The notes under the pieces are model-generated. The model made no database searches. It was not told where the DNA came from and was given only the letters and a program-made list of their open reading frames with translations. DNA of 32,000 bases. It comes from Methanothermobacter thermautotrophicus str. Delta H. Lineage in GTDB: Archaea > Methanobacteriota > Methanobacteria > Methanobacteriales > Methanothermobacteraceae. The position numbers were made by a program, and so were the translations under genes. Within the stretch, counting starts at the first letter, position 1, and every line of letters starts with the position of its first letter. The stretch is from the NCBI RefSeq assembly GCF_000008645.1, contig NC_000916.1, positions 630,001 through 662,000 on the forward strand, in the 5' to 3' direction. Below are positions 4,677-28,724 of the stretch, piece by piece.

Positions 4677-4928
4677 ATGCAGGAAGGTGCTGGAATGGCT
4701 GAGGACTTTGGAAGGTACTGGGTGGCTGGACTCATAATGGCAGTTGCAACAGAGTTCATCAACACCCTCACATACATCATCGGAACATGGAGACCCAATT
4801 TTTATCCTGAATGGATCCTCGGTCTCCTTACAGGGATCGCCGGTATTGCAATGTTCATACTGGTCCCATGGATCTACGGGCGCCTTGTGGAGTTCGTCTA
4901 CATCCACTTCATCAGTGGTGAGGGCTGA
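4677..4928 (+). CDS. Small two-TM membrane protein, function unknown
   Basis: It starts 1 nt after the msrB stop. Two hydrophobic segments are present (WVAGLIMAVATEFI and ILGLLTGIAGIAMFILVPWIY). ATG 4695 (MAEDFG) has a better SD (ggaaggtg, 4682-4689). Confidence 0.55.
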   Translation: MQEGAGMAEDFGRYWVAGLIMAVATEFINTLTYIIGTWRPNFYPEWILGLLTGIAGIAMFILVPWIYGRLVEFVYIHFISGEG

Positions 4929-5291
4929 TCAGAGGCCGTTAAACATTGCAGCAGCCTGGTTCATTAACTCGTTGGCCTCGTTTATCATGAGCCCAGAGTG
5001 AACGAAGTGATCATCATCTCCATCATCATAGAATCTCAGGAACTCCCTTATGGCCTCAAGGTAGGTCCCAACGGCCTTAAATATCAAATTGTGAAGATCA
5101 GCAAGCCCAGGATCCGGGATTTCACTTGATATGTCCCTGAACACCCTGGTGAGGGAGCGTTCTATATCCATGAACTCATCCCTGAGTTCCTGTGGATCCC
5201 TCCCACCCCTGAGAAGTATAAGGCTACCCCTGAATCTGTTTACATTGTACCCTATTCTCTGAACATGCCTCTGCATCCTCCTTGAGTACAT
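4929..5291 (-). CDS. Hypothetical 120-aa cytoplasmic protein, called gene X here; parent of the fragment at 19482-19690
   Basis: Strong SD ggaggtga (reverse complement of 5300-5307) lies 7 nt upstream of ATG 5291. Core-like GC-rich codon usage. I recognise no family. Confidence 0.6.
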   Translation of the reverse strand: MYSRRMQRHVQRIGYNVNRFRGSLILLRGGRDPQELRDEFMDIERSLTRVFRDISSEIPDPGLADLHNLIFKAVGTYLEAIREFLRFYDDGDDDHFVHSGLMINEANELMNQAAAMFNGL

Positions 5292-5654
5292 TGAATAATC
5301 ACCTCCATTTATATTGATTTAGTTTCTCTAATAAATAATCCATCATGGGATAACACCAGCGAATTAAATGATAAGCTGAGGCTGGAGGATCAAAAGTACA
5401 GAACAAATGTGAATTTTTCCAATTTCATATACTGTCTCCGCTCTCTAGATCATAGATATTGTCTCCACGTCAGCTTTTCTTCGTTGATCAGTATCTGATC
5501 TTAGCTAATGATACCACTTTGTTCCAATCTCCACATGACGTTCACTTAGTTCTATCAAAGAGAGAATGTGTAGATTGCGTGACACACAATCCATATGCTT
5601 CAGATATCAGAGAAAAACGATGGATTATCACTTGATGAAAAGAAACCCCAACTC

Positions 5655-5700
5655 AGTGAAAAAAGACCTACCAAATATTCAATTTTCCAAAAAAAGAAAT
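5655..5700 (-). terminator. Oligo-T tracts after the CobN-like ORF
   Basis: On the minus strand there is a T7 run (plus-strand A-run 5689-5695) 10 nt after stop TAA 5705-5707, and a T6 run (5659-5664). Confidence 0.5.
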
Positions 5701-5704
5701 GTGG

Positions 5705-8700
5705 TTAATACTCTTTTCTAGATGCCCTAAAGTAACCAATTGCCATAAGGACCACGAGAATCAAGACCCCCATAATAGCATAAAATGAAATTCCTGTACT
5801 TGAAAATCCCTGTGAACCTCTTCTAGTGATCTCATAAGATTTACCTTCACCTGCTTTGCCAGGTTCTCCTGTACCCCTCTGTAACCCGACCTCATCTAGG
5901 GATGCTGTTGTTCCTGCAGATCTAACTGATGAATCTCTTGCGCTTGAACCGGCACTACCGGTCCCAGTTCCCTCTTGTGTACGTGGTGTTGAACCTGATT
6001 CACCGCCCTCCCCATGATCTTCGGCAGGTGCGAAGTTTGCATTTTTCGTGGCAGCGTATATCTTCGCCTTAACCTTTTCAATGAGATCAGGATTCACATA
6101 CTGCATAGCCCATTCTATCATAGCAAGATTACCACAACTGCAGTCACAGCATGCCACTCCATGCTCAGCAATCATTTTAGCCCATCTGTTAGCAATGTTC
6201 CTGGTGATGGTCTCATCAGTTTTCCAGTAACCCATATAGATGACGTTCAACATGGTCCCTGTTATACTTATCATCGCATAAGCCCTGTTACCGCTGGAAA
6301 GCCAATCTGTAACCCCTGTTTGAAGGCTGTCTTGGAGATATACATTATACGCTGTCTGCCAGAGGTTACTATAAAATGTGCTCGAAAAGACCTCGTCATG
6401 GGTATAACTGTCTCTTAGAATTGTCCATGCTATGAGGTTAGAAATAAATTTCCTGCTGATGTATCTACCTGTGGGGTCGCTTTGCATCATGGCCCTGATC
6501 CATTCAGGGTTGAAGTAGCGAGTTGTTGCCTCCAGACTCATAAAGCTTTCAAGTGTCAATGCCCGGGGGGAGCCTCTGTTCCCATAACTCAGAACATACA
6601 TTGTTGGTGCTTCACCATTCACCCTTTCTATGGCAACTGAAAGTCCACCCCAGTAATCAAAGAAGTCATCATTATCCAAGACCCCATAGAGATTTGTGTT
6701 TCTACTTGTAAATACTGTCTTGACACCATTAAGCGCCCTTTTGAAGACTAGTGGATTTGATGATCCCCATTGGGTGCTTGAGTATATGTTACCCATCCTG
6801 TTAAGGTAGAAGTCCGCAAGCTCCATTCTGTCATCCCATGTCCAGCTTAACTGGATGCTCTTGGATATCCCAGCTCCATAATCATTCTCTGGTGGGGCGA
6901 ATATCTTTGAAATTGCATATTCCCCAGCAATCTCTGGGGTCATATTAAGGGACATGTAATATTCAAAGTCTTCAACCCAATGTTTAGCAACATAATTGTA
7001 ATCTAATGACTCGTCACCGATACCATAGAATCCAACAGGCCCTACCACATAATTTAGGGCCTTTTCTATCTTGTCCCCATATTTTTGTTTAAGCCTCGTA
7101 TCATCTAATATTGTATAGTAGGATCTTGCAAGGGCTACTCTGAACGCCTTGTCAAGTAGGCCGGCTTGCCTGCTGTAAAGATCCCTGAATAAGCCCGTTG
7201 TTATAATCACAACGTCAATCCTCTTTTTCTCCCAGCCCTCTGGTCGCACAAGATCCTTGAGTTCTACATATTTCGGCATTTCTTTAAGTTTAGCACCTCC
7301 CACACCAGCACTTGGAGAATCAGACCAGTCAGGTTCCATTCCAAGCAATGCCAGCACCATTGATACTAGTGCTGCATCATCACGTGCCGTTTCTGTGCAG
7401 AATATACCAACAGCTATTTTCTCCACAGTAGCATTAAGGTTTTGGAGTGTTAATAATGCTAAACTCTTACCATATTCAAATGAACTTCTTGTAGGTATCT
7501 CCGCTGCTTGATCCTGGAAGAAATTCCTACCCGTTGGCAGCGCATCAGGGTTGCTCACCAGATCGTTACCAGCCCCCGGTGGAATATAACCACAATTCAA
7601 AGCATCTAGTAGAGCTTCTACCTCAGCATCCATACTCTCATATACTTTCATCGCATATTCACGAGCCAACTCTAATGCCTTTTTCAGCCCAGCCGTTGGC
7701 ATGCTAGTTAAATTGTTAAGCGTCGCATTCACTCCATTAGTGATGACACTCTTCACGATCCCTATGCAATTTTCTTGCACTTTCTCCTTTTGTATACTGG
7801 TAAGGTTCCCATAAGATTTTCTATAGAATAGGAGGGCCACCTCATCCTGTAATGTTGTCTCCTCAGTGGTAGAAACTTGGAATGGCACTGATAGTATCGA
7901 AGAGACTAGCATCGCCACTTCCTCCTCTGTCCAATTTTTACCAATGGCATGTAAACCATGAGGATACAATGTATCCTGCACCTGCCCCAGGTAATCTTCT
8001 ATTGTCTGGACTAGCTTATCCCCATATAGTTTGTTGAGTGATACTCCCATTGCCATTTCTATAAGTTGTGTGAGATTATTATCCTGTATTGTCTTCCTTA
8101 TCTTACTGATTATCTCTGTTTTTGTTGAATTGTCAGCACCATCATATTGACCCACCAGAGTTGCTAAAGAAGCGTATCCACCATATAATGCCGTGAATGT
8201 TAATGGTGGTGTTAAATGGTCTATGATAACTGCTGATCCCCTCCTCTTGGCCTGGATGCCCTCTGCGAGTCCATCCACTATATAATAATAGATCTGTGGA
8301 GTGGCACCAGTCACGACCTTGGGGAAGTCAGAGGATGCCAATAGAACCTCTTTACCAGGGAGCCACTCATAAGTAGCGTGTCTTCCAAGATGGACCATCG
8401 CATCAGTGTTCTCCTGCAAGTAAGCATAAACTGCAAGATACTGATGTGGCGGAGCCACCACCATGCTATGATAAAGCTTGTTAATATCTCCTTCCCATCC
8501 ACGCTGAGGCTCTGGACAAATGAAGATGTTACCAAACCACATCCCTGGGATTACAAAATATTTTGTACCATTCTTTTCCACAGTCATTATATCCCCGGGG
8601 GGCTGGCCCCAACCAGATAAACCACTAATATTAAGGGCAAAGAACTGCCTCTTATATCCCAAGAATTCATTATAGTATCTTTGATCCCCAGTTAAAATAT

Positions 8701-11068
8701 AATTCTTGAGAGCCGCAACTATCTTATCCAATACTGATATGGCCACATTTGTCTTGTTTTCCGGCAATAAGGATATTATACCATCGTACCAGGAGTCTAT
8801 ACGATCTCCCATACCAGTTGTATAATTCAATCCTACCGCCCTTTTGCATAATTCTCCAATATATCCAACAGGCCCCTCTATAACTTGGATCTTTGTGATC
8901 TCGTCAAGCTTAGAGAACCATTCCATGTACTTGTCCACTGGATAGAGTATTGCATTTTTAGCAAGTTTTTCAAGTTCTCCAGGAGCCCATGGGGCGACAT
9001 TAATACCCTTCTGGATTATCATATCATGGAGTATTGTTGTATTGGCTGGTATGTTCTCTACAGTGTACCCATTATCTTTGAGGATGTTAAGGAGATTATA
9101 GATGCTTGTTATAACGTCAAGGTAGCTTGAACCGATATTATCCTTTCCTGGCGGATAATTATAGTAGATTAACGCCACTTTTTTCTCATTGTTCGACAAT
9201 CTTTTCAGTTTAACCCAACCTTTTATCTCATCGGCAAGATGCTCAATATTCGCAGGTATTATCTCGTAGAGACTATAAGATAATCCAGTATCAGGGTCTG
9301 TGATCGGTTCAGAGTTCGTGGCCACAATTGTCGAATCTATAATCCCCTGGGATTCTGAAACGGCTATGTGCCACCATCTGTCACCTGTAAGTTGCCTTAA
9401 TCCTAGGGTGCTGAGATCCCACTGCTCCGCAAGAAGATAATCAGAATGTAAAGCCTTAAATACTGGTACATTTATGAGTTCAAAGAATTTTGTAACATTC
9501 GTGAAAAGATCACCGCCCAAACCATAGGCTGGCATGCTCACTATAGCATCAACATAAACCTTATACTTGGATGGGTTTGCGAAGAAGCTTTCAACGTCGG
9601 GTGCATCAGTGAATGATTCCACCATAACCTTTAATTGTTCGGGCGTGGCCCCATATGCCACTACTGGTATAACATTAAATCCTCTAGCCTCTAATGCATC
9701 GATAATAGCATAGTATGGTTGTAGTTTTTGATTGTCCACGTACATTTTACTTTCAAGGAGCCCTATACAACCCGTGGCGTTCGCCCTGAAGTATTTATTG
9801 ATGTATTCTGTAAGGTTATACCATCCGTGACGGTAAATCCCATATGGTTTTTCGCCGCTGGTTGCCCATATTGGAGGTTTCCAGTATCCAGTGTTTGGAA
9901 CCCCAATAAGATTGAGGGCCCAGACGATCTGGTTTACAAACGCATTATTATTATTGATGTCTTTGTAGAGTACCGCCATGTTGTACTCTAGTGAGAATAT
10001 GCCAGTAATATTAGATGATGAGATGTAATTTAACACGTGTTCGAAATTGGCGCCTTTTTTGGTATTTTGATAGTAGTCTATTAGGAGCTCATCTTGTATG
10101 TTGGAGAGGATGTATTCTCCTTTGATGTTTGAGTATCTCATGAGACTTGTATATGCTGGATTATAGACTATTGCAGGTTCTAGTATGAGGAATATGCCAC
10201 CTGTTTTGTTAGTTATTCCTGGGTTTGTTGAGAGCAGTTTTTGTAGGCGTTGAGATGCGCTGTCACTTAAGTATTCTCCAAGAAATATGTCACAGGCTGA
10301 TAGGACTTGCAGGAGTTCGTTATCTGACATCTTGGTTAACTGTTCACAGCTTCTGATCTGTATCTGGACCTTTTCCCTTACAGGGGCGTATCCAAGAACG
10401 TTTGCATCATGAACTGCCTCGTTAATAACTATCGTTTGTCCTTCATCACTTATAATAAATACTAGAACGTTACCACTTTTCTTAACGGTGCAGAATCTGT
10501 TAAATTTATTATTTGTTTTATTGATTTCCTGGATGTGGTTTTCTGGGTCTATTATGAGTTGTAGTGTGTGGGAGCCCACAGTCATTGGAGTCCAATTAAA
10601 CACTACCGTAGTTGTCTCACCACTCCTAAGTAATGGGATGGTATAACTACCAACCCTCACACCATTATCAACAAAATCAACCCTAACCCCACTAGCATTG
10701 GCCGGACCAATATTCGATATCCTCGCAGTGAATGTGTATGTCTCATTAACTATAAGATCAGCAACTAATTCCGTACTTTTGCATATAAGATCGGGAAGAG
10801 CCTGATTAACTGTCACATTCAATATTATCCTATTGTTTGTCTCATTGGTCTCCTGGATGTGGTTTTCTGGGTCTATTATGAGTTGTAGTGTGTGGGAGCC
10901 CACAGTCATTGGAGTCCAATTAAACACTACCGTAGTTGTCTCACCACTCCTAAGTAATGGGATGGTATAACTACCAACCCTCACACCATTATCAACAAAA
11001 TCAACCCTAACCCCACTAGTATCTTGATTACCTGCATTTCCAACCAGCGCGGTGACATTATATGTCAA
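5705..11068 (-). CDS. Giant CobN/Mg-chelatase-H-family protein with two N-terminal CARDB-like repeats, a Ser/Gly/Thr-rich linker and a C-terminal TM anchor. The frame continues upstream through an in-frame TAG into ORF 11135-12088.
   Basis: A 5364-nt open frame. CobN-family signatures are present (HLGRHATYEWLPGKE, AKRRGSAVIIDHLTPP, QYLAVYAYL). Residues 1-190 carry two copies of GVRVDFVDNGVRVGSYTIPLLRSGETTTVVFNWTPMTVGSHTLQLIIDPENHIQE. The C-terminus is GISFYAIMGVLILVVLMAIGYFRASRKEY. The track start is TTG with no SD and no signal peptide, and the first ATG is codon 54. Confidence 0.85.
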   Translation of the reverse strand: MTYNVTALVGNAGNQDTSGVRVDFVDNGVRVGSYTIPLLRSGETTTVVFNWTPMTVGSHTLQLIIDPENHIQETNETNNRIILNVTVNQALPDLICKSTELVADLIVNETYTFTARISNIGPANASGVRVDFVDNGVRVGSYTIPLLRSGETTTVVFNWTPMTVGSHTLQLIIDPENHIQEINKTNNKFNRFCTVKKSGNVLVFIISDEGQTIVINEAVHDANVLGYAPVREKVQIQIRSCEQLTKMSDNELLQVLSACDIFLGEYLSDSASQRLQKLLSTNPGITNKTGGIFLILEPAIVYNPAYTSLMRYSNIKGEYILSNIQDELLIDYYQNTKKGANFEHVLNYISSSNITGIFSLEYNMAVLYKDINNNNAFVNQIVWALNLIGVPNTGYWKPPIWATSGEKPYGIYRHGWYNLTEYINKYFRANATGCIGLLESKMYVDNQKLQPYYAIIDALEARGFNVIPVVAYGATPEQLKVMVESFTDAPDVESFFANPSKYKVYVDAIVSMPAYGLGGDLFTNVTKFFELINVPVFKALHSDYLLAEQWDLSTLGLRQLTGDRWWHIAVSESQGIIDSTIVATNSEPITDPDTGLSYSLYEIIPANIEHLADEIKGWVKLKRLSNNEKKVALIYYNYPPGKDNIGSSYLDVITSIYNLLNILKDNGYTVENIPANTTILHDMIIQKGINVAPWAPGELEKLAKNAILYPVDKYMEWFSKLDEITKIQVIEGPVGYIGELCKRAVGLNYTTGMGDRIDSWYDGIISLLPENKTNVAISVLDKIVAALKNYILTGDQRYYNEFLGYKRQFFALNISGLSGWGQPPGDIMTVEKNGTKYFVIPGMWFGNIFICPEPQRGWEGDINKLYHSMVVAPPHQYLAVYAYLQENTDAMVHLGRHATYEWLPGKEVLLASSDFPKVVTGATPQIYYYIVDGLAEGIQAKRRGSAVIIDHLTPPLTFTALYGGYASLATLVGQYDGADNSTKTEIISKIRKTIQDNNLTQLIEMAMGVSLNKLYGDKLVQTIEDYLGQVQDTLYPHGLHAIGKNWTEEEVAMLVSSILSVPFQVSTTEETTLQDEVALLFYRKSYGNLTSIQKEKVQENCIGIVKSVITNGVNATLNNLTSMPTAGLKKALELAREYAMKVYESMDAEVEALLDALNCGYIPPGAGNDLVSNPDALPTGRNFFQDQAAEIPTRSSFEYGKSLALLTLQNLNATVEKIAVGIFCTETARDDAALVSMVLALLGMEPDWSDSPSAGVGGAKLKEMPKYVELKDLVRPEGWEKKRIDVVIITTGLFRDLYSRQAGLLDKAFRVALARSYYTILDDTRLKQKYGDKIEKALNYVVGPVGFYGIGDESLDYNYVAKHWVEDFEYYMSLNMTPEIAGEYAISKIFAPPENDYGAGISKSIQLSWTWDDRMELADFYLNRMGNIYSSTQWGSSNPLVFKRALNGVKTVFTSRNTNLYGVLDNDDFFDYWGGLSVAIERVNGEAPTMYVLSYGNRGSPRALTLESFMSLEATTRYFNPEWIRAMMQSDPTGRYISRKFISNLIAWTILRDSYTHDEVFSSTFYSNLWQTAYNVYLQDSLQTGVTDWLSSGNRAYAMISITGTMLNVIYMGYWKTDETITRNIANRWAKMIAEHGVACCDCSCGNLAMIEWAMQYVNPDLIEKVKAKIYAATKNANFAPAEDHGEGGESGSTPRTQEGTGTGSAGSSARDSSVRSAGTTASLDEVGLQRGTGEPGKAGEGKSYEITRRGSQGFSSTGISFYAIMGVLILVVLMAIGYFRASRKEY
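10528..11019. repeat. Intragenic tandem repeat, period 324 nt, containing a 168-nt perfect copy
   Basis: By direct comparison, 10528-10695 is identical to 10852-11019. The repeat encodes the two CARDB-like units of the CobN-like ORF. Confidence 0.9.
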
Positions 11069-11137
11069 TCCTTTATAGAATGTTCCATCGAGCTTGGATT
11101 GTGTCCATAGCTCTGGTTCTCTACTGACCGGTGCCTA
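11069..11137 (-). other. In-frame TAG stop plus a 22-codon stop-free linker joining ORF 11135-12088 to ORF 5705-11068
   Basis: 12088-11068 = 1020, which is divisible by 3. My manual translation reads LALLEARY, then TAG, then APVSREPELWTQSKLDGTFYKG, then L(TTG)TYNVTAL. Confidence 0.9.
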
Positions 11138-12088
11138 ATACCTTGCCTCAAGTAAGGCAAGTATAATCTTATAAAAGCCTTTTCCACCATAACCACCCGT
11201 TAATGCACCATCATATGTTAAAAGGTTCTCTCCAGTAGGATTGAATTGAGCAGTGACATTCCATTTATTTAATCCGCTGTAATCTCCAGTTAACTGATTA
11301 CCGGAAAGCCTCCTCCCATTAAAGGTATATGTGCCATCAACACTGCTCGCATGAATTACAGTCGCTGTGACATTTTTAATATCACCTATGATATTCGATC
11401 CAAAAATGGTTCTCCCAATATAATTTTCTCCAGTATTATCCGTGTAGTAATAGTTGTCCACATCATGGCCCATATTGACCCAGTAGGCGACAGTATCAGT
11501 GCTTCCAGGGATGTCATAGGCTACTACAAGTGTTATAACCTTTATGCGACCATCTGTAGTACAATTAAATGTGGTCACATTAGCCCAGTTTCTAACTCCC
11601 GTAATATTGGTTACATCATACCATAGGAGATAGTCACTTGTAACCCGCACAATATGATCATTTATTTGAGTATACTGAGAAGCTTCCTCATTATTCTCAG
11701 GATAAACATATTGGGAAGATAGGTGTGTGCTCTCTAGAAGATGCCCATTATATGTGATATTCACGTTAAGCGGATAATCCACTTGCATATGTCCTTGGTA
11801 TACAAGTACATGAAGTTGTGCCCATGAAACACTTGCATTAGCAGGCAAATCCCTAAAAGTATATACTACCGTGGAATTACCGGGTTTATTCATACTATAA
11901 TCTGCCGATCCGTTGGTGCCAAAATAGGTATCAACATAAAGCCCGCCACTTACAGTCCCATTTTTGACTGTTTCAAGTTTTAAACCTCCACACCATGGAT
12001 CAGCATAAGCTGACGAAGTTAATGAAAATATTACAACTGTTAGAATGATTACACCCAACAGCTTATGAAATTTCTCCATCAGAACCAA
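11135..12088 (-). CDS. Secreted leader protein: signal peptide plus a beta-rich domain of about 290 aa (possibly DUF3344-like). It is probably the N-terminal part of the CobN-like gene.
   Basis: Signal peptide KLLGVIILTVVIFSLTSSAYA. Clear paralogue of the N-terminal 300 aa of ORF 17672-19012 (RVTSDYLLWYDVTN, DGRIK.ITL.VAY.IPGST, YW.N.GHDV, YKIILA). Many N-x-S/T sequons. ATG 12079 (MEKFHK) is a likelier start than TTG 12088. The ORF ends at TAG. Confidence 0.8.
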   Translation of the reverse strand: MVLMEKFHKLLGVIILTVVIFSLTSSAYADPWCGGLKLETVKNGTVSGGLYVDTYFGTNGSADYSMNKPGNSTVVYTFRDLPANASVSWAQLHVLVYQGHMQVDYPLNVNITYNGHLLESTHLSSQYVYPENNEEASQYTQINDHIVRVTSDYLLWYDVTNITGVRNWANVTTFNCTTDGRIKVITLVVAYDIPGSTDTVAYWVNMGHDVDNYYYTDNTGENYIGRTIFGSNIIGDIKNVTATVIHASSVDGTYTFNGRRLSGNQLTGDYSGLNKWNVTAQFNPTGENLLTYDGALTGGYGGKGFYKIILALLEARY

Positions 12089-12250
12089 CCTTCTTTGATC
12101 ATTTCTATCACTTTATTGTAAATTCATTGTTTATATATTTTACCAAAAAAGTATTACTAATTATGAGGAGTATAAAAATAGTATCATAAAAAGTCGTAGT
12201 GTGTTACTATACATTGTGTAGAAGAAAAACAAGTAATACCATGGGAGCCT

Positions 12251-12277
12251 TTCTAACAAAAAAATAAAAAGGGGGGC
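12251..12277 (-). terminator. Oligo-T terminator after the 1755-codon ORF
   Basis: The minus strand reads TAA agcccccc ttttt a ttttttt (plus-strand A-runs at 12258-12264 and 12266-12270). Confidence 0.55.
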
Positions 12278-15200
12278 TTATATTGTGACGTAGTTTGGCA
12301 GTCGCTTATTGGTTCCGTAGAATTTTATGATTTTGCTGTACATGTAAACCAGACGTTGGAATGGTATTCTTCCAAGGCCAGTGATGGCGTAATTTGGTGC
12401 GCGGCCACGACTATCTATGAATGAAAGGATATTCTTTGCAACCTTCACATAACTTGACCTGTAAATTCTGCCATGTCTGTACCATCCACTAGAAGCTGTC
12501 GGACTTGCAACACTCTTCACAGAAATCAGAGCTAGGTTACCAGCATTTATATTGACTGTTGCCTTGCAAAGCAAGTAAAGGAACTGTGCCATACTTTGCT
12601 GCTGCCCATTAATCGCCACCTTACTTGGCAATCTACCATAACGCTCATAATAAGCTCTAACCCAAGAAGCAGCATCAATGATCTGTCCAACGCTAATACC
12701 CGGACTCCTAACACTCACAAACGCTGTCAAATTATTTATTGCCACAGGATAATTACCCGCTGAAGTCAGAGTATAATTGAAGCTCACAACTCCCACACCA
12801 CCAGCAGGGACCGCTATAGTCTTTGTAGCTACCGTCTGACCATTCACCTTAAATTGTGCTGTGTAATTTCCGGCCAAGTCACCAGTGTTTCTCAAGTTAG
12901 CTGTCACCGTAATGTTCAGTGGTGCCACACCACTCTTTGGAGTCACCGTAAGGTTTCCTACTGTTATATTAGCAGGTTTTAACACTGTCACAGCCACTGG
13001 GGCCAGATCATCTATTGTCACATTGTAAACTCCAGCAGTCAACACCCTACTAAACTCCACACTCACAGTCTGCCCAGCAGGGACCGCTATAGTCTTTGTA
13101 GCTACCGTCTGACCATTCACCTTAAGTTGCGCTGTGTAATTCCCTGCCACATCACCACTGTTCGTCAAATTAGCAGACACCGTAATATTCAATGGCGCCA
13201 CACCACTCGTTGGAATCACCGTAAGGTTTTCGAGTGTGAATTGTGGGCCTTGGTAGACTGTTATGTAGTTTTCTTTTGTTAGTGTGTTTTCTCCTCCGGG
13301 TCCTTTTATTATGAGTGTTACTGTGTAGGTTCCTGGTTGTGTGTAGGTGTAGGTTGGGTTTTGTTCTGTGCTATCTATTATAGTGTCGTTGTTGAAGTCC
13401 CAGTACCATTCTGTAGCTTCAGTTGAAAGGTCGGTGAACTGGACTGTTAGTGGTGCGATTCCTTCAGTTGCATTGGCTGTGAAGTTGGCCATTGGTGGTT
13501 CGTATTCTAGTATTAGGATTGCTTGGAGGGCTACCATGTTGTCTCCATGGCTTCCGTTGTTGTAGCTTTGTATTTTTGCGGTGTTTGTCCCGTTTTGTAG
13601 GGTTTCTTTTATTTGGTAGGTGCTGAATCCTATTTGCGGTCCTGTTAGGTAGTCTTGCCAGAATCCTGTGTATTCTTGGTTGTTGAAGTAGAATTTGCTT
13701 TTGTTGGCTTCGTTTGCAGAGGCTGTTATGACTATTGTCTTGGCTTCTTTTAGCATGTTTGTGTTTATGTCGTTGAAGATTGCGTGGGCTGTTGCCTCGG
13801 TATCGTTTACTCCGTAGTCTGTTCTGCTGTAGAGCATGTCTGTTTCTTCGTTTATCCAGATTTTCTTGATAGTTTCGTTTTCGTGTTCATAGATTATGAG
13901 AATGTATGAACCGTAAAGTGCTGTTGTTGTGTTAGTTCCAGCTGTTAGGGTTAGTGTGTTGTTTTCACTCGGCCTGAATAGGCTTGTTACATTATATACT
14001 AGTAGTCCGCTTGGGTAATTGCTTGATCCGTAACCTTTGGTGTCGTTGTAGTGTGCCAGTGGATTTATGGTTACGTTGTTGAATGTTGCGATGAAGTCTG
14101 GGATTCCCCCTACAGTGTTCCATGTGTATGGTTGGTATAATCTAGCCTCTTTTATTGTGGCTCCTTCTGGTATTGGTAGGTCTGCTGGGGTCCATATGAC
14201 GATGTAGGGGTTTTGCCAGTTTCCTGATCCTGATCCACGGTATGTTGAATTGCCTGGTGAATATAATAGTTTTAGGCGTCCTTCTAATGCTAGTACAGTG
14301 TTTATGTCGCTTCCATTCGTGTACTGCTTGCCCTTGTAGCCGTTGTAGTAGATGGTAGCAGTTGTATTGTAAATGTTGTTGGTTTCGTTGGTTTCTTCAA
14401 CTTCATCATCACTGTCCACTATGACGTTAATGGTTATGGGTCCTGTTAGTGGTGTGAAATCATTAAATGTTACATTGGCGGTTGCACCTGCAGCTAATCC
14501 TTGTAGTATCTTTGTATTATTATATTCGCCTACTATGAGTTTCACTTTGAATTGGCCGGCGTCAAGGTTTCCTTCATTATATATTGTTACTTGGATCGTG
14601 TTGGGTTCATTTGCGAATAGTTCACGGTGTCCAGCCGCATTATTTGGATTATATGTGATGTTAGTGACTTTAAGATCTCTCTGTAAGGATACAGTAGTGT
14701 TTGCTACGTTGTTGTTGATGTTAGCATCCCTTATATTCGTATTTCTGAGATAGTGCATATCCGTGTATGTTATGTTTGCGATGATTATATAATCTCCAAG
14801 TGTCAGGTTCAGGTTTTGTGTGATCGTCCTTGATTCTCCTGGTTGTAAGGCTGGGATTTCATGGATAAATTCTTGACTGTCACATGTTATATTCACCGGG
14901 AATGTTGCATCCGGGTCTATTTTTGTGATGTCTGCTTTACCATTGTTCTTAACCCTTACCTGTATACTATTACTTGTTGCTGTGATGTTTTCAATTAGTA
15001 GATCTGCTATGAGTGGTTTTTGGTCTCCCTGGTATGGTGTATCCCCAATTCCATCTCCGTCAAGGTCGTCTCCTGTGTAATCCGACCAATAATTACCTCC
15101 GCCAGTGGTGTTCCAATTGTTGTTGCTTGGATTTCCCTCTGTCTGGTTTGTATTGTTTATGAAGTAATTATCGTATATCATGTTTCCTGTACTGGCCCCT

Positions 15201-17545
15201 GTTCCGGTGCCTGTCAGTCTAATACCCTTTGAGTTTTCTTTGATGATGTTGCCTATGATGGTATGGTTACTTCCACCAGTCACATAGAGTCCATAGTTGC
15301 ATCCCGTGACATTGTTTCCTGTTATCGTGCATCTTTGGGCGTTGAATGGCCATATTCCATAGTTGCAGTTTGTTACTATGTTGTCTTGTACTGTGTCGCC
15401 ATTTAGTGGCACGATGCCGTATCCTTGTTTGTTTGTCCCTATTGCTGTGTTGGCTATTATTGTATTGTTTCCTCCGCCTTCAACGCGGATTCCACTTTTA
15501 TCCGCCACGTAGACTGTGTTGTTGGCTATGAAGTTATTGTTGCCAGATATGTATATAACTGATCTGACTGTGCCTGGGTTTACTATATTATCTGTTACGA
15601 TGTTGTTTGCACCATATACGAGTAATCCACCAGAGGTGATGTTATTGTATGCTATTGTATTGTTTCCGTCTCCAGATACGTATATACCATAGGTGCTGCC
15701 TTGAACGTTATTGTATTGTATCGTGCTCGTTACACCATTGTAAAGGTATATGGCGTTGCTAGAGTTCATTATGGTGTTATTTTCTATTATGAGATTGTTG
15801 TTTTGTTTGTATGCGATTATAGCATTTGCTTGTGTGTTTGTTATGGTACTGGTTTTTATTGTGATGCCAGTGGAGTTCCAGAGGTATATTCCATGTCTAT
15901 TATTGAGGATTGTTGTGTTTTGGATTGTGCAATCGCTTGAAGTGACTATTAGTATTCCTTGACTGTTATTGGATACTGTGATATCCTTTATTGTGACATT
16001 TGTTCCATTGATTATGGCGAGGAATCCTACTGTTTCATTGATTGTCCTGTTTTGGACGTTCTTCAAGTAATATACAGGGTTCCCATTTATAGTGTTGCTC
16101 GTGTCTATCTCCTGATTGAATTTTGAACCATCTGTTGATACTGTGTCAAAAACTCCAAAGTTTAACAGGTTATCTTGTAGTCTGTTATTGTGGAGTTGGC
16201 AGCCTTCAGAATCTTTAATGTAGATTCCATAGTAGTTGTTGATGACTGTGTTGTTGATAAGTGTGCATCTGTACTGTGTATCAATGTTGATGCCTTTACC
16301 ATTTGTACCATTAGCGCCTTGGATTGTGAAACCCTCAATCCTTGTATCATTTGCTTTCACATCAATAACGGTTCCAGTTGACGTAGATGCTATGATATTC
16401 ACAAGACCATTGGCCTTTAATGTTAAAGGCTTATTTAAGACTATGTTTTCTGTGTAGTTGCCTTCACCTACGAGTATTGTATGTCCAGCTACTGTACTAT
16501 TATCGTTTATAGCATCCTGGATTCTATCAAACGTTCTGTTTGTGTCAAGGTTCATGACCTTCGCCACTGTTATGCAGTTTTCTTTTGTTAGTGTGTTTTC
16601 TCCTCCTGGTCCTTTAACGGTAAGTGTTACTGTGTAGGTTCCCGGTTGTGTGTAGGTGTAGGTTGGGTTCTGTTCTCTGCTATCTATTATAGTGTCGTTG
16701 TTGAAGTCCCAGTACCATTCTGTAGCTTCAGTTGAAAGGTCGGTGAACTGAACTGTTAATGGGGCAACACCCATTGTGGGACTTGCTGTGAAGTTAGCTG
16801 CCAGTGACTCAACATATTCAACCATTAATATTTGTAGGATTGCGCCCATCCCACCACTGCTCGTGCCTTGTATCCTTGCCCTGTTTTCTGTGCTGTTTAA
16901 TTTGCCTGTGACATTGAATATCTCGGGGTATGATGTTTTGCTGTTTCCTTGCCACACGTTCAATCCTAAAGTCTCATTGTTGAAGTACACGTTTCCTTCA
17001 TTTGGTCCGGCATGTGTTACCCATGTCATATAGGTTGCATTTGAAACTTTCTCCACGTCAGGTATTCCGGGGAAGTTGACATATGCAATGCATTCTTCAG
17101 GTTGCACGCTAAAGTTTGGGTCAAGGAGTAGAATGTCATATTCTTCGTTTATGTATATACCAGTGGGTGGTCTTGATGTGTCGTTGTAGATCACTAGGAG
17201 TGTGAATGGGAACATGCTAAGTGTATGTGTTTGTTGAGATGCCGGTACTGTTAAGTTTACAAAGACTGCATTATCTTGGTTTTTTAGGTAGTATTCTGTC
17301 ACATCATAGACTAGTAATCCATATTTATAGTGCGGGTAGCCTCCAAAATTTGATTGATCCCAGTACCATCTTGTATAATTCCCTGGTTGGAATGTAGCAT
17401 TATTGAAGTGTATTGTAAGGTATGTTGTTGCGGCCCCATCAGCAGGGTTTGTGCCCTTGTTATCCCAGTTGTATGGGACGTAGAGGTAAACTTTGACTGG
17501 TGTGGCATTTTCTGGTATGCTAAGTTGCGTTCCATTAAAAATCAC
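12278..17545 (-). CDS. Giant adhesin-like / S-layer-related surface protein. Domain order: D-domain, PKD, right-handed beta-helix (NosD/CASH-like), CARDB-like x2, second D-domain, PKD, CARDB-like x2, then C-terminal pseudomurein-binding repeats. The frame continues upstream through an in-frame TAA into ORF 17672-19012.
   Basis: A 5268-nt open frame. PKD signature VAPLTVQFTDLS...WDFNNDT...NPTYTYTQPGTYTVTL occurs twice. Long runs of about 22-aa N/G/I/T-rich beta-helix turns end in NYWSDYTGDDLDGDGIGDTPY. The C-terminal repeats (AASWVRAYYERYGRLP, SSYVKVAKNILSFIDSRGRAPNY, FQRLVYMYSKIIKFYGTNKRLPNY) match the pseudomurein-binding repeat family as I recall it. The track start is GTG with no SD and no signal peptide, and the first ATG is near codon 111. 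Confidence 0.85.
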   Translation of the reverse strand: MIFNGTQLSIPENATPVKVYLYVPYNWDNKGTNPADGAATTYLTIHFNNATFQPGNYTRWYWDQSNFGGYPHYKYGLLVYDVTEYYLKNQDNAVFVNLTVPASQQTHTLSMFPFTLLVIYNDTSRPPTGIYINEEYDILLLDPNFSVQPEECIAYVNFPGIPDVEKVSNATYMTWVTHAGPNEGNVYFNNETLGLNVWQGNSKTSYPEIFNVTGKLNSTENRARIQGTSSGGMGAILQILMVEYVESLAANFTASPTMGVAPLTVQFTDLSTEATEWYWDFNNDTIIDSREQNPTYTYTQPGTYTVTLTVKGPGGENTLTKENCITVAKVMNLDTNRTFDRIQDAINDNSTVAGHTILVGEGNYTENIVLNKPLTLKANGLVNIIASTSTGTVIDVKANDTRIEGFTIQGANGTNGKGINIDTQYRCTLINNTVINNYYGIYIKDSEGCQLHNNRLQDNLLNFGVFDTVSTDGSKFNQEIDTSNTINGNPVYYLKNVQNRTINETVGFLAIINGTNVTIKDITVSNNSQGILIVTSSDCTIQNTTILNNRHGIYLWNSTGITIKTSTITNTQANAIIAYKQNNNLIIENNTIMNSSNAIYLYNGVTSTIQYNNVQGSTYGIYVSGDGNNTIAYNNITSGGLLVYGANNIVTDNIVNPGTVRSVIYISGNNNFIANNTVYVADKSGIRVEGGGNNTIIANTAIGTNKQGYGIVPLNGDTVQDNIVTNCNYGIWPFNAQRCTITGNNVTGCNYGLYVTGGSNHTIIGNIIKENSKGIRLTGTGTGASTGNMIYDNYFINNTNQTEGNPSNNNWNTTGGGNYWSDYTGDDLDGDGIGDTPYQGDQKPLIADLLIENITATSNSIQVRVKNNGKADITKIDPDATFPVNITCDSQEFIHEIPALQPGESRTITQNLNLTLGDYIIIANITYTDMHYLRNTNIRDANINNNVANTTVSLQRDLKVTNITYNPNNAAGHRELFANEPNTIQVTIYNEGNLDAGQFKVKLIVGEYNNTKILQGLAAGATANVTFNDFTPLTGPITINVIVDSDDEVEETNETNNIYNTTATIYYNGYKGKQYTNGSDINTVLALEGRLKLLYSPGNSTYRGSGSGNWQNPYIVIWTPADLPIPEGATIKEARLYQPYTWNTVGGIPDFIATFNNVTINPLAHYNDTKGYGSSNYPSGLLVYNVTSLFRPSENNTLTLTAGTNTTTALYGSYILIIYEHENETIKKIWINEETDMLYSRTDYGVNDTEATAHAIFNDINTNMLKEAKTIVITASANEANKSKFYFNNQEYTGFWQDYLTGPQIGFSTYQIKETLQNGTNTAKIQSYNNGSHGDNMVALQAILILEYEPPMANFTANATEGIAPLTVQFTDLSTEATEWYWDFNNDTIIDSTEQNPTYTYTQPGTYTVTLIIKGPGGENTLTKENYITVYQGPQFTLENLTVIPTSGVAPLNITVSANLTNSGDVAGNYTAQLKVNGQTVATKTIAVPAGQTVSVEFSRVLTAGVYNVTIDDLAPVAVTVLKPANITVGNLTVTPKSGVAPLNITVTANLRNTGDLAGNYTAQFKVNGQTVATKTIAVPAGGVGVVSFNYTLTSAGNYPVAINNLTAFVSVRSPGISVGQIIDAASWVRAYYERYGRLPSKVAINGQQQSMAQFLYLLCKATVNINAGNLALISVKSVASPTASSGWYRHGRIYRSSYVKVAKNILSFIDSRGRAPNYAITGLGRIPFQRLVYMYSKIIKFYGTNKRLPNYVTI
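12715..13245. repeat. Intragenic tandem repeat, period 273 nt (two CARDB-like units)
   Basis: The 50-nt core cagcagggaccgctatagtctttgtagctaccgtctgaccattcacctta is identical at 12802-12851 and 13075-13124. The flanks are similar (protein GVAPLNITV.ANL.N.GD.AGNYTAQ.KVNGQTVATKTIAVPAG). Confidence 0.85.
13261..13490. repeat. PKD-module repeat, copy 2 (dispersed intragenic, 3309 nt from copy 1)
   Basis: About 230 nt nearly identical to 16570-16800. The offset is 3309 = 3 x 1103, so the frame is preserved. Confidence 0.85.
16570..16800. repeat. PKD-module repeat, copy 1
   Basis: See 13261-13490. An example shared stretch is gtgtaggtgtaggttgggtt...tatagtgtcgttgttgaagtcccagtaccattctgtagcttcagttgaaaggtcggtgaact. 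Confidence 0.85.
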
Positions 17546-17674
17546 AGTGTAGTTTGACCAGCCTTCGGTTCCAGCCCTATATGTTGTATCTGGTTGCGCA
17601 TAATATGCTAGACCATAACGGCCATAGTATGTTTCTACCGTATTAATGTCTGAGCCATTGTAGGCCCATCTTTA
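17546..17674 (-). other. In-frame TAA stop plus a 42-codon stop-free linker joining ORF 17672-19012 to ORF 12278-17545
   Basis: 19012-17545 = 1467, which is divisible by 3. My manual translation reads VPVLYNGYKG, then TAA, then RWAYNGSDINTVETYYGRYGLAYYAQPDTTYRAGTEGWSNYT, then V(GTG)IFNGTQL. Confidence 0.9.
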
Positions 17675-19012
17675 ACCCTTGTATCCATTATATAGAACTG
17701 GAACTGTCCTCGTCTTTTCGTTGTTTGCTTCATTGGTTTCTGGCACTTCATTGTATGGGTCTATCACGAACCTGTAGGTCACATTTTGGTTATTGTTACT
17801 GTAGAGTGTTTCCGTCGTGGCAGATCTTATCGTAGGATCCGTTATATTCACATATACTGTTCCACTAGGATTAATGGGGGGTATAATAGAGGTTGCCACT
17901 AGTTCGTCGTTAGCATATAATGCCAGTATGGTCGCTGGTGATGCGCCACTACCATTATTTTTAATCTGGCACCTCATTGTATTATTTTCCAATACAAATG
18001 CTGCACCACCATTAAATGTGACTGTCTGTAGTGTTAGGTCTATGTTTGGTGTGTAGGTGACTTTTTGGACTGCAAGTATTATCTTATAGTAGCCCCCTAG
18101 TCCTGTTCCTGGGCTTTTGTGGTATGTGAATTTGTTGGTTCCGTTATTGTAGATGTTTGTGACATTCCATATTTCGTATCCACTGTAGCTTCCACGTCTT
18201 TGGTATGTGCCATTTGGCAGGTTCTGGTCATTGTATGTGTAAATTCCATCACTGCTCGCTGCATGCACTATCATCACACTCGCATTTGCAGGGTTGGGCA
18301 CAGCACCGTTGAAGTAGGTTTCTCCTGTGTAATCTTCATCGTTGTAGCTACTCACGTCATGTCCCCAATTGATCCAATATCTTGTCGCGGTTGTGCTTCC
18401 TGGGATGTTGTAGGCCACGATTAGTGTTATGAGTTTTATGCGGCCGTCGTAGGATCCGATAGTGCATACGTTGGCTGTGTTGTTCATGTCCTTCTTTGTC
18501 ATGTTTGTTACATCATACCATAGTAGGTAGTCGCTTGTGACGCGCATTGTATGGTTGTTTATCATCAGGTAGGGGTCGTTGTCATGTCCCTCGCCTAGAA
18601 GCCAAGTGTTATTGTTTCCCTCTGGGGGGTAGATGTATGTTGTGTAGAGTGTTTGGTTTTCTAATGAGTTGCCATTGTAGGTTACGTTTACATATGTTTG
18701 CCTGGCTTCTTGCATGTGGCCTGAGTATACGAGGACGTACAGTGTTGCATTTTTGATCTGAGCATTTGATGGTATTGTGTAGTTGAAAGTGTATGTGATG
18801 TTAGCGTTTCCTCCTGTATTGTTGCCAACACCCTCTGGATCTGTGAAACCATAATATGAGTCAACGTTTACATCGCCTGTTACTGTACCATTCTGGAGCG
18901 TATCTAATGGTTTGCCACCAACATAACTGTCTGCATAGGAATACCCGTTTAAAACTAGGATAACACTGATTATCAGCAAAATGTAAACACTACTCTTCAA
19001 CGTAGAATTCAA
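17672..19012 (-). CDS. Secreted leader protein: signal peptide, D-domain (paralogue of 11135-12088) and one CARDB-like domain. It is probably the N-terminal part of the giant adhesin gene.
   Basis: TTG start at 19012 lies 8 nt after the strong SD aggaggtg (reverse complement of 19021-19028). Signal peptide VYILLIISVILVLNGYSYA. I count 20 N-x-S/T sequons in 446 aa by hand. The CARDB-like tail ends in EVPETNEANN. The ORF ends at TAA. Confidence 0.8.
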   Translation of the reverse strand: MNSTLKSSVYILLIISVILVLNGYSYADSYVGGKPLDTLQNGTVTGDVNVDSYYGFTDPEGVGNNTGGNANITYTFNYTIPSNAQIKNATLYVLVYSGHMQEARQTYVNVTYNGNSLENQTLYTTYIYPPEGNNNTWLLGEGHDNDPYLMINNHTMRVTSDYLLWYDVTNMTKKDMNNTANVCTIGSYDGRIKLITLIVAYNIPGSTTATRYWINWGHDVSSYNDEDYTGETYFNGAVPNPANASVMIVHAASSDGIYTYNDQNLPNGTYQRRGSYSGYEIWNVTNIYNNGTNKFTYHKSPGTGLGGYYKIILAVQKVTYTPNIDLTLQTVTFNGGAAFVLENNTMRCQIKNNGSGASPATILALYANDELVATSIIPPINPSGTVYVNITDPTIRSATTETLYSNNNQNVTYRFVIDPYNEVPETNEANNEKTRTVPVLYNGYKG

Positions 19013-19130
19013 TATTTTTCACCTCCTATTAATAACTGGTCTCTTATTGCTATTTTATTATATAAAAATTAATATGTATTACATTTTATAGTAAATTATA
19101 TATTATAGTATTACATATGTTGATACAAAT
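19013..19130 (-). promoter_or_regulatory. SD plus a very AT-rich promoter region for the 17672-19012 / 12278-17545 transcription unit
   Basis: SD aggaggtg is present. Several TATA-like tracts (attttattatataaaaattaatat, tatatattatagta) lie 40-110 nt upstream. I cannot place the exact TATA box. Confidence 0.4.
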
Positions 19131-19220
19131 ATTCAATGTCGGAGAGTAATCAAGCGCAGCTGGTAAAAAACTCGTATGAGCACATGCTCAGAAAACTAAA
19201 AGGTTACCAAACAAACCAAA

Positions 19221-19484
19221 GAACTGCTTCATAAAAAAGATATAACCCCTGGATGAAATTCTTATATGATGATAAGGTCAAAGTACGCCTTCCTCCAGAG
19301 GCTCACAAGGGACCTCAAAAATGAAATCAATAAGTATAGGAGAGGAACTGGAGGGAGCAACACCCCCATCGGTCTTCATAGGTAGCTGGAATTACCCTAA
19401 GGTTTATGCGGGTCCCATGATAGCCCCTGTACAGGAGGAAATGGAAATATTTGACTCCCCCGAGCGATGGATACCAGAGAGAAA
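19221..19484 (+). pseudogene. Truncated duplicate of the nre promoter plus its first 55 or so codons (nre-prime)
   Basis: It aligns to 21546-21812 with 7 substitutions and one extra A (my manual alignment). It includes the TATA-like aaaaaagatataa (19233-19245). Homology to nre stops at about 19484. Confidence 0.85.
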
Positions 19485-19690
19485 CATTGCAGCAGCCTGG
19501 TTAATTAACTCGCTGGCCTCGTTTATAATGAGCCCGGAGTGAACGAAGTGATCATCATAGAACCCTATTGATCTCAAGTAGGTCCCGGCGACCCTAACTA
19601 TCAAAATTGTGAAGATCAGCAAAAAAACCCGGACCCAGGATTTCACCTGATATGTTCCTGAACACTCTGCTGAGGAGCTATATAACCAAA
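19482..19690 (-). pseudogene. Degraded 3' fragment of gene X (X-prime)
   Basis: It aligns to 4941-5166. The first 77 nt have 4 mismatches, followed by a 12-nt deletion and more diverged patches. It lacks the last 4 codons and stop of X and the whole 5' third, SD and promoter. Confidence 0.8.
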
Positions 19691-19707
19691 AAAATATTAA
19701 AAAAGGT
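19685..19707 (-). terminator. Oligo-T terminator after the 574-aa gene
   Basis: The minus strand reads TAA accttttttaatattttttt (plus-strand A-runs at 19688-19694 and 19699-19704). It is homologous to the terminator at 12251-12277. Confidence 0.5.
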
Positions 19708-21432: not shown

Positions 21433-21555
21433 CTAATTATATTATTAAATCATTATTTAACATTACCCTAAACCAAAAAAAATAGCATCATCTTAACGGC
21501 GAATAAAAAAAACATATAAAAAGATTTGAAGTGGGACAATTAGAAGAACTGCTTC

Positions 21556-28109: not shown

Positions 28110-28724
28110 TCATCCTACGGGTCTCCAGAATTCCGGGTCTGCAAATCCTGGCTCCCTCCTTCTACTGGATGATAGTTCCCTGAGGATCTCCTCTACATCA
28201 TCATATCCCCTCTCTGTGAACCTGCTAATATGGTACTCAATCTTTGAGGGGGATGGTGCATCCCTGAGTATTATGTTGGTGCCCTCGTGGCCCCCATGGA
28301 TCTCCAGATCCGCAGAGTCAAGGAGCCTCTCTGTTATGCTCTGTGAGAAGGATACGTCCACTATCTTCCTGTGGTTTATGTAGTATCTCCTCTTCCATAG
28401 GACCCCCTCCTCAACCATGACCCTCTGGTCGGTGATTATGTAGCGCCTGTTCCTCCAGGAGATCACATCCCAGAGGATGGAGAGGAGGATTATGATTATT
28501 ATGCCTGTAAGAAGCCATGCGACCTTCTCAGCTACTGTGACACCATAATTTGCAATCAGGAGATTGTCAAGTGCCCCGGCTCCCTCAACTATCCACTGGA
28601 AGAGGTATAGTATTATCACGGCTGACAGGGCCTTTATTATGGTTGATTTTGAGTTGAGGATGAACCGCGGCCTTGTCTCATATAAAATTCTCTCACCTGG
28701 ATGTAACCTGTCCCTGCCAAACAT
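28110..28724 (-). CDS. Membrane protein with a bacterial PH-like (bPH_2/YdbS-type) domain
   Basis: Two TM helices (IIKALSAVIILYLFQWIV and VAWLLTGIIIIILLSILWDVI) are followed by WRNRRYIITDQRVMVEEGVLWKRRYYINHRKIVDVSFSQSITERLLDSADLEI, the typical bPH_2 layout. Confidence 0.7.
   Translation of the reverse strand: MFGRDRLHPGERILYETRPRFILNSKSTIIKALSAVIILYLFQWIVEGAGALDNLLIANYGVTVAEKVAWLLTGIIIIILLSILWDVISWRNRRYIITDQRVMVEEGVLWKRRYYINHRKIVDVSFSQSITERLLDSADLEIHGGHEGTNIILRDAPSPSKIEYHISRFTERGYDDVEEILRELSSSRRREPGFADPEFWRPVG

Follow-up and report, generated by a model that had tools for sequence, protein, structure and literature searches.

The 1997 genome record of Methanothermobacter thermautotrophicus Delta H (1,751,377 bp) contains an open reading frame (ORF) with a predicted signal peptide and a DUF3344 domain that is separated by an in-frame TAG from a much longer ORF encoding two CARDB repeats and a CobN-like body. 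This raises the question of whether the TAG is decoded in the cell, divides two functional genes, marks a genuine loss of function, or belongs to the record rather than to the organism. Here, the question is addressed in a window of 32,000 nucleotides, the whole stretch of DNA analysed (positions 630,001 to 662,000 of NC_000916.1), to which all coordinates below refer.

The interrupted frame and its relatives

Translation of 12148..5705 on the minus strand gives a frame that runs from an ATG at 12079 to a terminal TAA at 5707-5705, with the TAG at 11137-11135 as its single internal stop. The minus-strand letters at the junction are GAG GCA AGG TAT TAG GCA CCG GTC AGT AGA, and they are read as FYKIILALLEARY, the stop, and then APVSREPELWTQSKLDGTFYKGLTYNVTALVGNAGNQ. 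The earlier note had claimed that this TAG alone separates the two ORFs, and this is confirmed for the 1997 record; its frame arithmetic is also right, with (12088-11068)/3 = 340 and (12088-5705+1)/3 = 2128. The sequence can thus be described as a single gene of 2124 codons plus the stop (5705..12079, minus strand), broken in the 1997 record at codon 315. By exact-sequence match, the 314/317-aa product of the first ORF is AAB85220.1 (O26811), and the 1787-aa product of the second is AAB85219.1 (O26810). The order of these accessions indicates that the old locus tags are probably MTH715 and MTH714, respectively. We found no literature on MTH714, MTH715 or MTH716, and the genes are absent from Kaster et al. 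(2011).

Relatives of the gene are continuous where the 1997 record is interrupted. The junction codon specifies an amino acid (E, K or T) in 13 of 13 related loci, and all 13 cluster proteins have E at this site, so that a stop is found in none of the 26 homologous sequences. For example, four contigs with 99.1-99.6% nucleotide identity to the record have GAG and open frames of 2135 codons, three further loci have E, two have K, and M. ferruginis has T. Between the TAG and the TTG at 11068 that is called as the start of the 1787-aa ORF lie 22 codons (11069..11134, beginning APVSREPELW), which align to the relatives as a conserved coding linker rather than a spacer between genes, matching TAPVDMRPDL in M. 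ferruginis and E[AP/SP/PP]V...P[ED]LW in the 13 loci. The best match to a 1000-aa fused query was an M. ferruginis protein with 43% identity, and the strain's own protein was not returned by this search. A contig search with the protein encoded after the TAG returned a 3.2-kb MAG fragment with 93% nucleotide identity over the shared 3.2 kb, which begins past the junction and is therefore uninformative about the TAG; the other two matches were unrelated CARDB proteins.

The re-sequenced Delta H genome

Strain Delta H has been re-sequenced (CP064324.1, 1,751,429 bp; Casini et al., 2023, PMC10579436). In a blastn alignment to positions 1-22079 of the window, CP064324.1 shows three mismatches (17674, 16822, and 11137) and no gaps. 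At 11137 it has G in place of T, as does one of the near-identical contigs; the codon at 11135..11137 is therefore GAG (Glu315), both in re-sequenced Delta H and in the near-identical contigs. This is the one base at which the 6.4-kb gene differs from CP064324.1, and no further decay was found within the gene downstream of the TAG. The intact gene in CP064324.1 has the same flanking genes, and with GAG rather than TAG at codon 315 it is annotated there as one protein of 2124 aa (WBF06951.1 / WP_269889799.1, 'cobaltochelatase subunit CobN'). Judged by these alignments, the TAG belongs to the 1997 record and is without counterpart in the organism as re-sequenced. A continuous gene had been proposed as the ancestral state in the earlier note, and this is borne out by the intact relatives and by the 2124-aa protein in the newer genome of the same strain.

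The remainder of the window differs from CP064324.1 by six substitutions and two deletions of 1 nt each, with five of these changes falling within 125 nt. This cluster (28115-28239) includes both deletions and truncates a gene product of 257 aa to 204 aa. Altogether, the window contains nine substitutions and two indel bases, where 8.2 and 4.5 would be expected, and the local discrepancy rate matches that of the genome as a whole, for which 448 substitutions and 247 indel bases were reported between the old and new sequences (Casini et al., 2023, PMC10579436). All variants of the 1997 record that we tested are confined to that record, including those in the housekeeping LeuA/CimA synthase and the proteasome-activating nucleotidase (PAN). 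The old versions of LeuA/CimA, PAN, and a PH-domain protein are each encoded on a single contig, as are the 314/317-aa and 1787-aa products and two further products of 446 and 1755 aa discussed below, whereas the new LeuA/CimA version is present on 45 contigs and the new PAN version on 42. The truncated products were found in no public assembly except the 1997 record.

Because the local density of discrepancies fits the published genome-wide load and the newer base agrees with the relatives, the TAG is best read as an error. Likewise, the 1997 variants are singletons and about 700 bases are discrepant genome-wide, so that the prior for any one discrepancy is that of an error. Very probably, then, the locus is a continuous, conventionally translated gene of 2124 codons, in which the TAG is a single-base G-to-T discrepancy and most probably a base-calling error of 1997; an error is the most likely account of this base, rather than a true variant of the culture then sequenced. 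The TAG would be one of several hundred miscalls in a first-generation sequence, and translation would start conventionally at the ATG at 12079, requiring no readthrough, suppression or internal restart. The locus resembles other first-generation records later corrected by re-sequencing in its single-base discrepancy, in the genome-wide density of such differences, and in the clustered indel error by which a further gene of the window is cut short. It differs from such cases in that the error is deduced here from sequence comparison and not from raw data. Mining the old Delta H record for recoding events therefore needs cross-checking with CP064324.1, and O26810 and O26811 (probably MTH714 and MTH715) are to be treated as one 2124-aa protein.

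Recoding, separate genes, or a real mutation

An in-frame TAG within a methanogen gene is reminiscent of pyrrolysine recoding as known from Methanosarcinales and related archaea, and full-length protein might in principle be made from a true TAG gene by pyrrolysine insertion, a suppressor tRNA or stimulated readthrough. The frame is open on both sides of the TAG, and a modest hairpin follows it (z = -2.2 to -2.9 vs shuffles). However, the hairpin is only mildly more stable than the shuffles and is not conserved, and it was rejected as a stimulatory element: the same sequence follows GAG in intact alleles, and a consensus fold of six orthologues reached only -1.9 kcal/mol (covariation term 0.06), so that no conserved downstream structure was found. 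Neither tRNA genes nor matches to Rfam families were found in the window. In addition, TAG is an ordinary terminator here, ending three of the 19 other ORFs in the window (a small sample), and pseudomurein-binding repeats identified with Pfam place the host in Methanobacteriales, an order not known to carry pyl genes. Unlike a recoded codon, this TAG is neither conserved among the homologous sequences nor retained on re-sequencing. We therefore assign recoding next to no probability. The decoding capacity and stimulatory structure considered in the earlier note are unsupported given the GAG in CP064324.1 and the weak, non-conserved hairpin, and a sequencing artefact, which that note had named as the finding that would speak against its reading, is essentially what the comparison with CP064324.1 indicates. 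It is also highly improbable that the two ORFs are separate functional genes, with the CobN-like ORF expressed alone from an internal start at TTG 11068 or later. The annotations do call a separate product (1787 aa in 1997, 1541 aa in RefSeq), but conservation at the protein level extends through the 22 codons that precede TTG 11068, and all relatives have a single ORF. None of the in-frame starts after the TAG has a convincing ribosome-binding sequence in front of it; TTG 11068 itself is preceded by ...TATAAAGGA, leaving no room for a Shine-Dalgarno sequence, and the other in-frame starts lie inside CARDB. Moreover, the stand-alone product would be devoid of a signal peptide, yet it has 26 N-glycosylation sequons (flanking cytoplasmic proteins have none in five of ten cases and one to three in the other five) and a C-terminal anchor typical of exported proteins.

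A different possibility is that the 1997 culture really had the GAG-to-TAG change, together with a second nonsense change in a paralogous gene. At 17672..17674 (minus strand), alignment shows a TAA in the 1997 record and AAA (Lys) in CP064324.1, and this TAA divides a 2244-aa gene into products of 446 and 1755 aa (O26813 and O26812), which are to be treated as one protein. Of the three differences found over 22 kb, two thus create stops, each near the beginning of a giant surface-protein gene. Random substitutions would give a stop in these genes in 4.4% of cases, and the probability of at least two among three is 0.006, rising to 0.057 for at least two among the nine in the window. This enrichment hints at a non-random cause, for instance a laboratory lineage in which loss of these genes was selected. 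In that case, the two stops would recently have inactivated two surface proteins that are very large and costly, and the cell would secrete a truncated 314-aa DUF3344 fragment and have no functional CobN-like protein. The island is indeed variable and dispensable among strains, the giant genes being absent from two of the contigs compared, and similar genes look broken in M. ferruginis (892+297+129+821 aa) and in a neighbouring gene of Z-245 (624+1608 aa). However, the published discrepancy count predicts about 17 false stops across the genome, and the window was chosen for oddities, both of which weaken this hint; with the window probability of 0.057, the enrichment is insufficient as evidence for real mutations. 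Further, re-sequenced Delta H reads GAG, the roughly 700 bases that differ between the old and new sequences are far beyond laboratory divergence, one-base deletions occur within a dense cluster of differences, singleton variants affect the conserved LeuA/CimA and PAN, and the truncated products are restricted to the 1997 record. A private nonsense mutation is therefore unlikely, and it is quite unlikely that TAG 11137 and TAA 17674 were both real in the 1997 culture, the two largest surface proteins having been knocked out in parallel under laboratory propagation while the DSMZ stock remained intact. Were this so, the model methanogen would offer a small case of domestication in which costly proteins of the cell surface are lost.

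Domain layout of the full-length protein

With the TAG taken as a miscalled GAG, the product would comprise a Sec signal, DUF3344, two CARDB repeats, a CobN/ChlH/HmuS-like body, a low-complexity linker, and a C-terminal membrane anchor. The earlier note had read the fused frame in this order, and Pfam backs it on both sides of the junction, with DUF3344 upstream of the TAG and CARDB and CobN-Mg_chel downstream. The predicted signal peptide (12002..12079), MEKFHKLLGVIILTVVIFSLTSSAYA followed by DP, is suggested by a hydrophobic core and an AYA motif in the translation. DUF3344 (PF11824) covers residues 29-311 (11147..11995; 5.8e-61, 206.9 bits against a cut-off of 27.2). It is followed by the tandem CARDB repeats (10499..11119), which have a period of 108 aa and are recognized by Pfam in two stretches (1.4e-50); the repeat is also visible in blastn, where the DNA cores at 10507-10695 and 10831-11019 are 97% identical. 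When the TAG is read as sense, PF11824 and then PF07705 occur in one polypeptide; the intact proteins and over 100 homologues show this order as they stand. The paralogue shows the same arrangement, as the earlier note had observed: in its 446-aa ORF (19012..17672, minus strand), YYKIILAVQKVTYTPNIDLTLQ is present and DUF3344 (residues 29-318) runs on into CARDB (325-435).

The chelatase-superfamily body lies at approximately 6209..10474 and matches PF02514 (CobN-Mg_chel) with an E-value of 6.6e-220 and a score of 733.3 bits against a gathering cut-off of 24.5. Its best relatives of solved structure are HmuS (9d26, 9.9e-87), CobN (9uk9, 1.3e-79), and ChlH (4zhj, 2.4e-76). A linker rich in G, S, T, and E stands just before the putative transmembrane anchor (5729..5791), ISFYAIMGVLILVVLMAIGYF, which is followed in the translation by a basic tail, RASRKEY. 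From this layout, the protein would be a large, exported, and membrane-tethered surface protein, its export topology being predicted from the signal and the anchor.

The PF02514 body is common to this protein and the large subunits of class I chelatases (HmuS, CobN, and ChlH), and, like HmuS, the protein is predicted to sit outside the cytoplasm on a membrane anchor. It differs from all three by its N-terminal DUF3344, two CARDB repeats, and Sec signal. Genes for the AAA+ partners that accompany ATP-driven chelatases (CobS/CobT or ChlI/ChlD) were not found among the neighbours, which encode only surface and housekeeping proteins. HmuS is active without ATP, and the function of archaeal CobN/HmuS-like homologues is described as unknown (PMC12583661). 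An intact, exported, and membrane-anchored CobN/HmuS-like protein in a methanogen would be biology worth pursuing.

Reading frame in the 1997 and re-sequenced records

In the 1997 record (NC_000916.1), the minus-strand frame from 12148 to 5705 translates with a signal-peptide-like N-terminus, MEKFHKLLGVIILTVVIFSLTSSAYADP, and contains exactly one internal stop from the ATG at 12079 to the TAA at 5707-5705. This stop, a TAG at 11137-11135, lies in the context CTT GAG GCA AGG TAT TAG GCA CCG GTC AGT AGA GAA CCA GAG, and translation across the junction passes from FYKIILALLEARY through the stop into APVSREPELWTQSKLDGTFYKGLTYNVT, then remains open as far as the TAA. The proposal of the earlier note that only a TAG separates the 317-aa secreted ORF from the CobN-like ORF therefore holds; its codon arithmetic (340 and 2128 codons) was correct when recomputed, and in the paralogue at 19012..17672, DUF3344 indeed passes directly into CARDB. 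By exact-sequence look-up, the upstream ORF is AAB85220.1/O26811 (317 aa) or WP_048061239.1 (314 aa), and the downstream 1787-aa ORF is AAB85219.1/O26810, annotated as 'magnesium chelatase subunit'.

Strain Delta H was re-sequenced and assembled de novo from long reads as CP064324.1 (Casini et al., 2023; PMC10579436), and this chromosome (1,751,429 bp) encodes a 2124-aa protein, WBF06951.1, in the same protein cluster as the window ORFs. Across window positions 1-22079, the two records differ by three mismatches and no gaps. At 11137 (minus strand), the TAG of the window is GAG (Glu) in CP064324.1, and this stop-creating G/T is the sole difference in the whole 6.4-kb gene. At 17674 (minus strand), TAA is replaced by AAA (Lys), and at 16822, in the 1755-aa ORF, Val by Leu. 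The TAA at 17672-17674 divides the 2244-aa WBF06952.1, a DUF3344/CARDB/PKD/NosD/PMBR surface protein, into the 446-aa ORF and the 1755-aa ORF (annotated as 'S-layer glycoprotein'), and is a stop of the same kind as the TAG. A second CP064324.1 locus aligns with the remainder of the window, where a further six substitutions and two deletions of a single base separate the records. Five of these (three substitutions and both deletions) fall within 125 nt at 28115-28239 (minus strand), clearly a low-quality stretch of the old record, where the frameshift caused by the deletions leaves a PH-domain (bPH_2/YdbS-like) membrane protein with 204 aa instead of 257. The others are isolated substitutions at 24755 and 24761 in LeuA/CimA and at 30895 in the proteasome-activating nucleotidase PAN, and both proteins differ from their new versions.

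Disagreement between the two records has already been published in aggregate, with 448 single-nucleotide and 247 indel-base differences, and 91 old genes without a counterpart among the new ones (PMC10579436, Table 1). Scaled to 32 kb, these genome-wide counts predict 8.2 substitutions and 4.5 indel bases, compared with 9 and 2 observed, a density that is not unusual. For the genes that differ (LeuA/CimA, PAN, the PH-domain protein, and the 446-aa, 1755-aa, 314/317-aa and 1787-aa ORFs), no contig other than the 1997 record carries the old version. The new LeuA/CimA is carried by 45 contigs and the new PAN by 42, representing several strains. Singleton variants of this kind in conserved housekeeping enzymes, including two only 6 nt apart in LeuA/CimA, have the appearance expected of base-calling errors.

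The junction codon in relatives

Four contigs that match the window at 99.1-99.6% nucleotide identity (L005, L006, L014 and L016) carry GAG and open frames of 2135 codons. Among orthologues at 72-80% protein identity, the residue is E in L007, L008, L009, L010 and L013 and K in L011 and L012, and the frame is open over 2070-2142 codons in five of the seven (L007, L008, L009, L011 and L012); that of L010 runs to the contig edge, and that of L013 is open for just 502 codons. Even the Methanobacterium ferruginis homologue, 43% identical, aligns uninterrupted through the junction (LTVNYTAPVDMRPDL), and all 13 proteins taken from the two 90% clusters have EARYE[A/P]PV at this junction. Since relatives align across the junction, the 22 codons from the TAG to the TTG at 11068 are conserved protein sequence. 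A stop occupies this codon in one of 27 sequences, the old record.

Related giant genes are also called in pieces in modern assemblies of other strains, as 892+297+129+821 aa in M. ferruginis (L001:10001-16300) and as 624+1608 aa on the Z-245 chromosome (WBF08750.1 and WBF08749.1), a fragmentation due either to genuine gene decay or to indel errors in long-read data.

Origin of the stop

The gene is continuous, as proposed earlier, being intact in CP064324.1 and aligned across the junction in relatives, and the sequencing artefact that the earlier note had set against its reading agrees with the GAG of CP064324.1. The TAG has no role as a biological signal, and its cause is very probably an erroneous base call made in 1997. 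It is rather unlikely that the culture sequenced in 1997 carried a real, private nonsense mutation. In favor of such a mutation, two of the three island differences are nonsense, while random substitutions in these genes would create a stop in only 4.4% of cases (P = 0.006 for two of three; P = 0.057 for two of the window's nine). However, the whole genome should contain about 17 spurious stops by expectation and the window came to analysis through looking odd, and therefore we give this excess little weight.

Both programmed recoding and an arrangement of two functional genes are highly improbable. Neither tRNA genes nor matches to Rfam families were found within the window, where TAG is an ordinary terminator, ending three of 19 other ORFs. 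Folding the 60 nt past the TAG did yield a hairpin (-15.1 kcal/mol, z = -2.2), but it is not common to six orthologues, which share no structure downstream of this codon (consensus -1.9 kcal/mol), and intact GAG alleles carry identical sequence after codon 315. As for a separate downstream gene, no in-frame start with a plausible ribosome-binding site was found downstream of the TAG. The post-TAG part has 26 N-X-S/T sequons (ten flanking cytoplasmic proteins have none in five cases and one to three in the other five) and a C-terminal hydrophobic anchor, and because of these features it would require the upstream signal peptide.

The intact protein and its island

CP064324.1 already annotates the intact gene. 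On the minus strand, Pfam matches before the TAG are to DUF3344 (5.8e-61), and those after it are to two CARDB domains (1.4e-50) followed by CobN-Mg_chel (6.6e-220), matching the fused order suggested earlier. The whole protein comprises a predicted Sec signal peptide, DUF3344, two CARDB domains, a CobN/ChlH/HmuS body of ~1400 aa, a G/S/T/E-rich linker and a C-terminal transmembrane helix. The CARDB repeats (10507-10695 and 10831-11019) are 97% identical in DNA, from either recent duplication or gene conversion. Orthologues with one copy have 2025 aa and those with two have 2124-2133 aa, so either copy number varies or assemblies have collapsed the repeat.

Among solved relatives, HmuS (9d26, 9.9e-87) is the best match, followed by CobN (9uk9) and ChlH (4zhj). 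HmuS, a heme dechelatase, is membrane-anchored, ATP-independent and located outside the cytoplasm, and has many archaeal homologues of unknown function (PMC12583661). Similarly, the CobN-like body here (5705-10474, minus strand) is part of a protein predicted to be exported and anchored in the membrane, and no genes for AAA+ partners (CobS/T, ChlI/D) were found near the gene. A reasonable guess would be that the protein acts outside the cytoplasm, independently of ATP, in the handling of tetrapyrroles or metals.

Housekeeping genes flank the island (GatE, TrxB, GuaA, MsrB, NreA, LeuA/CimA, tRNA methyltransferase, geranylgeranyl reductase and PAN), and the pseudomurein-binding repeats of adjoining surface proteins are consistent with Methanobacteriales. 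The surface-protein island (~4900-21500) has a GC content of 40-44%, compared with 49-54% in the flanks, and differs between Methanothermobacter strains, two assemblies (L017 and L018) having none of the giant genes in the interval from NreA to MsrB/GuaA. Outside Methanothermobacter, the island is most closely matched by the Methanobacteriaceae MAG 41_258 (93% nucleotide identity). Low GC, strain variability and this match together suggest that the island was horizontally acquired and is dispensable.
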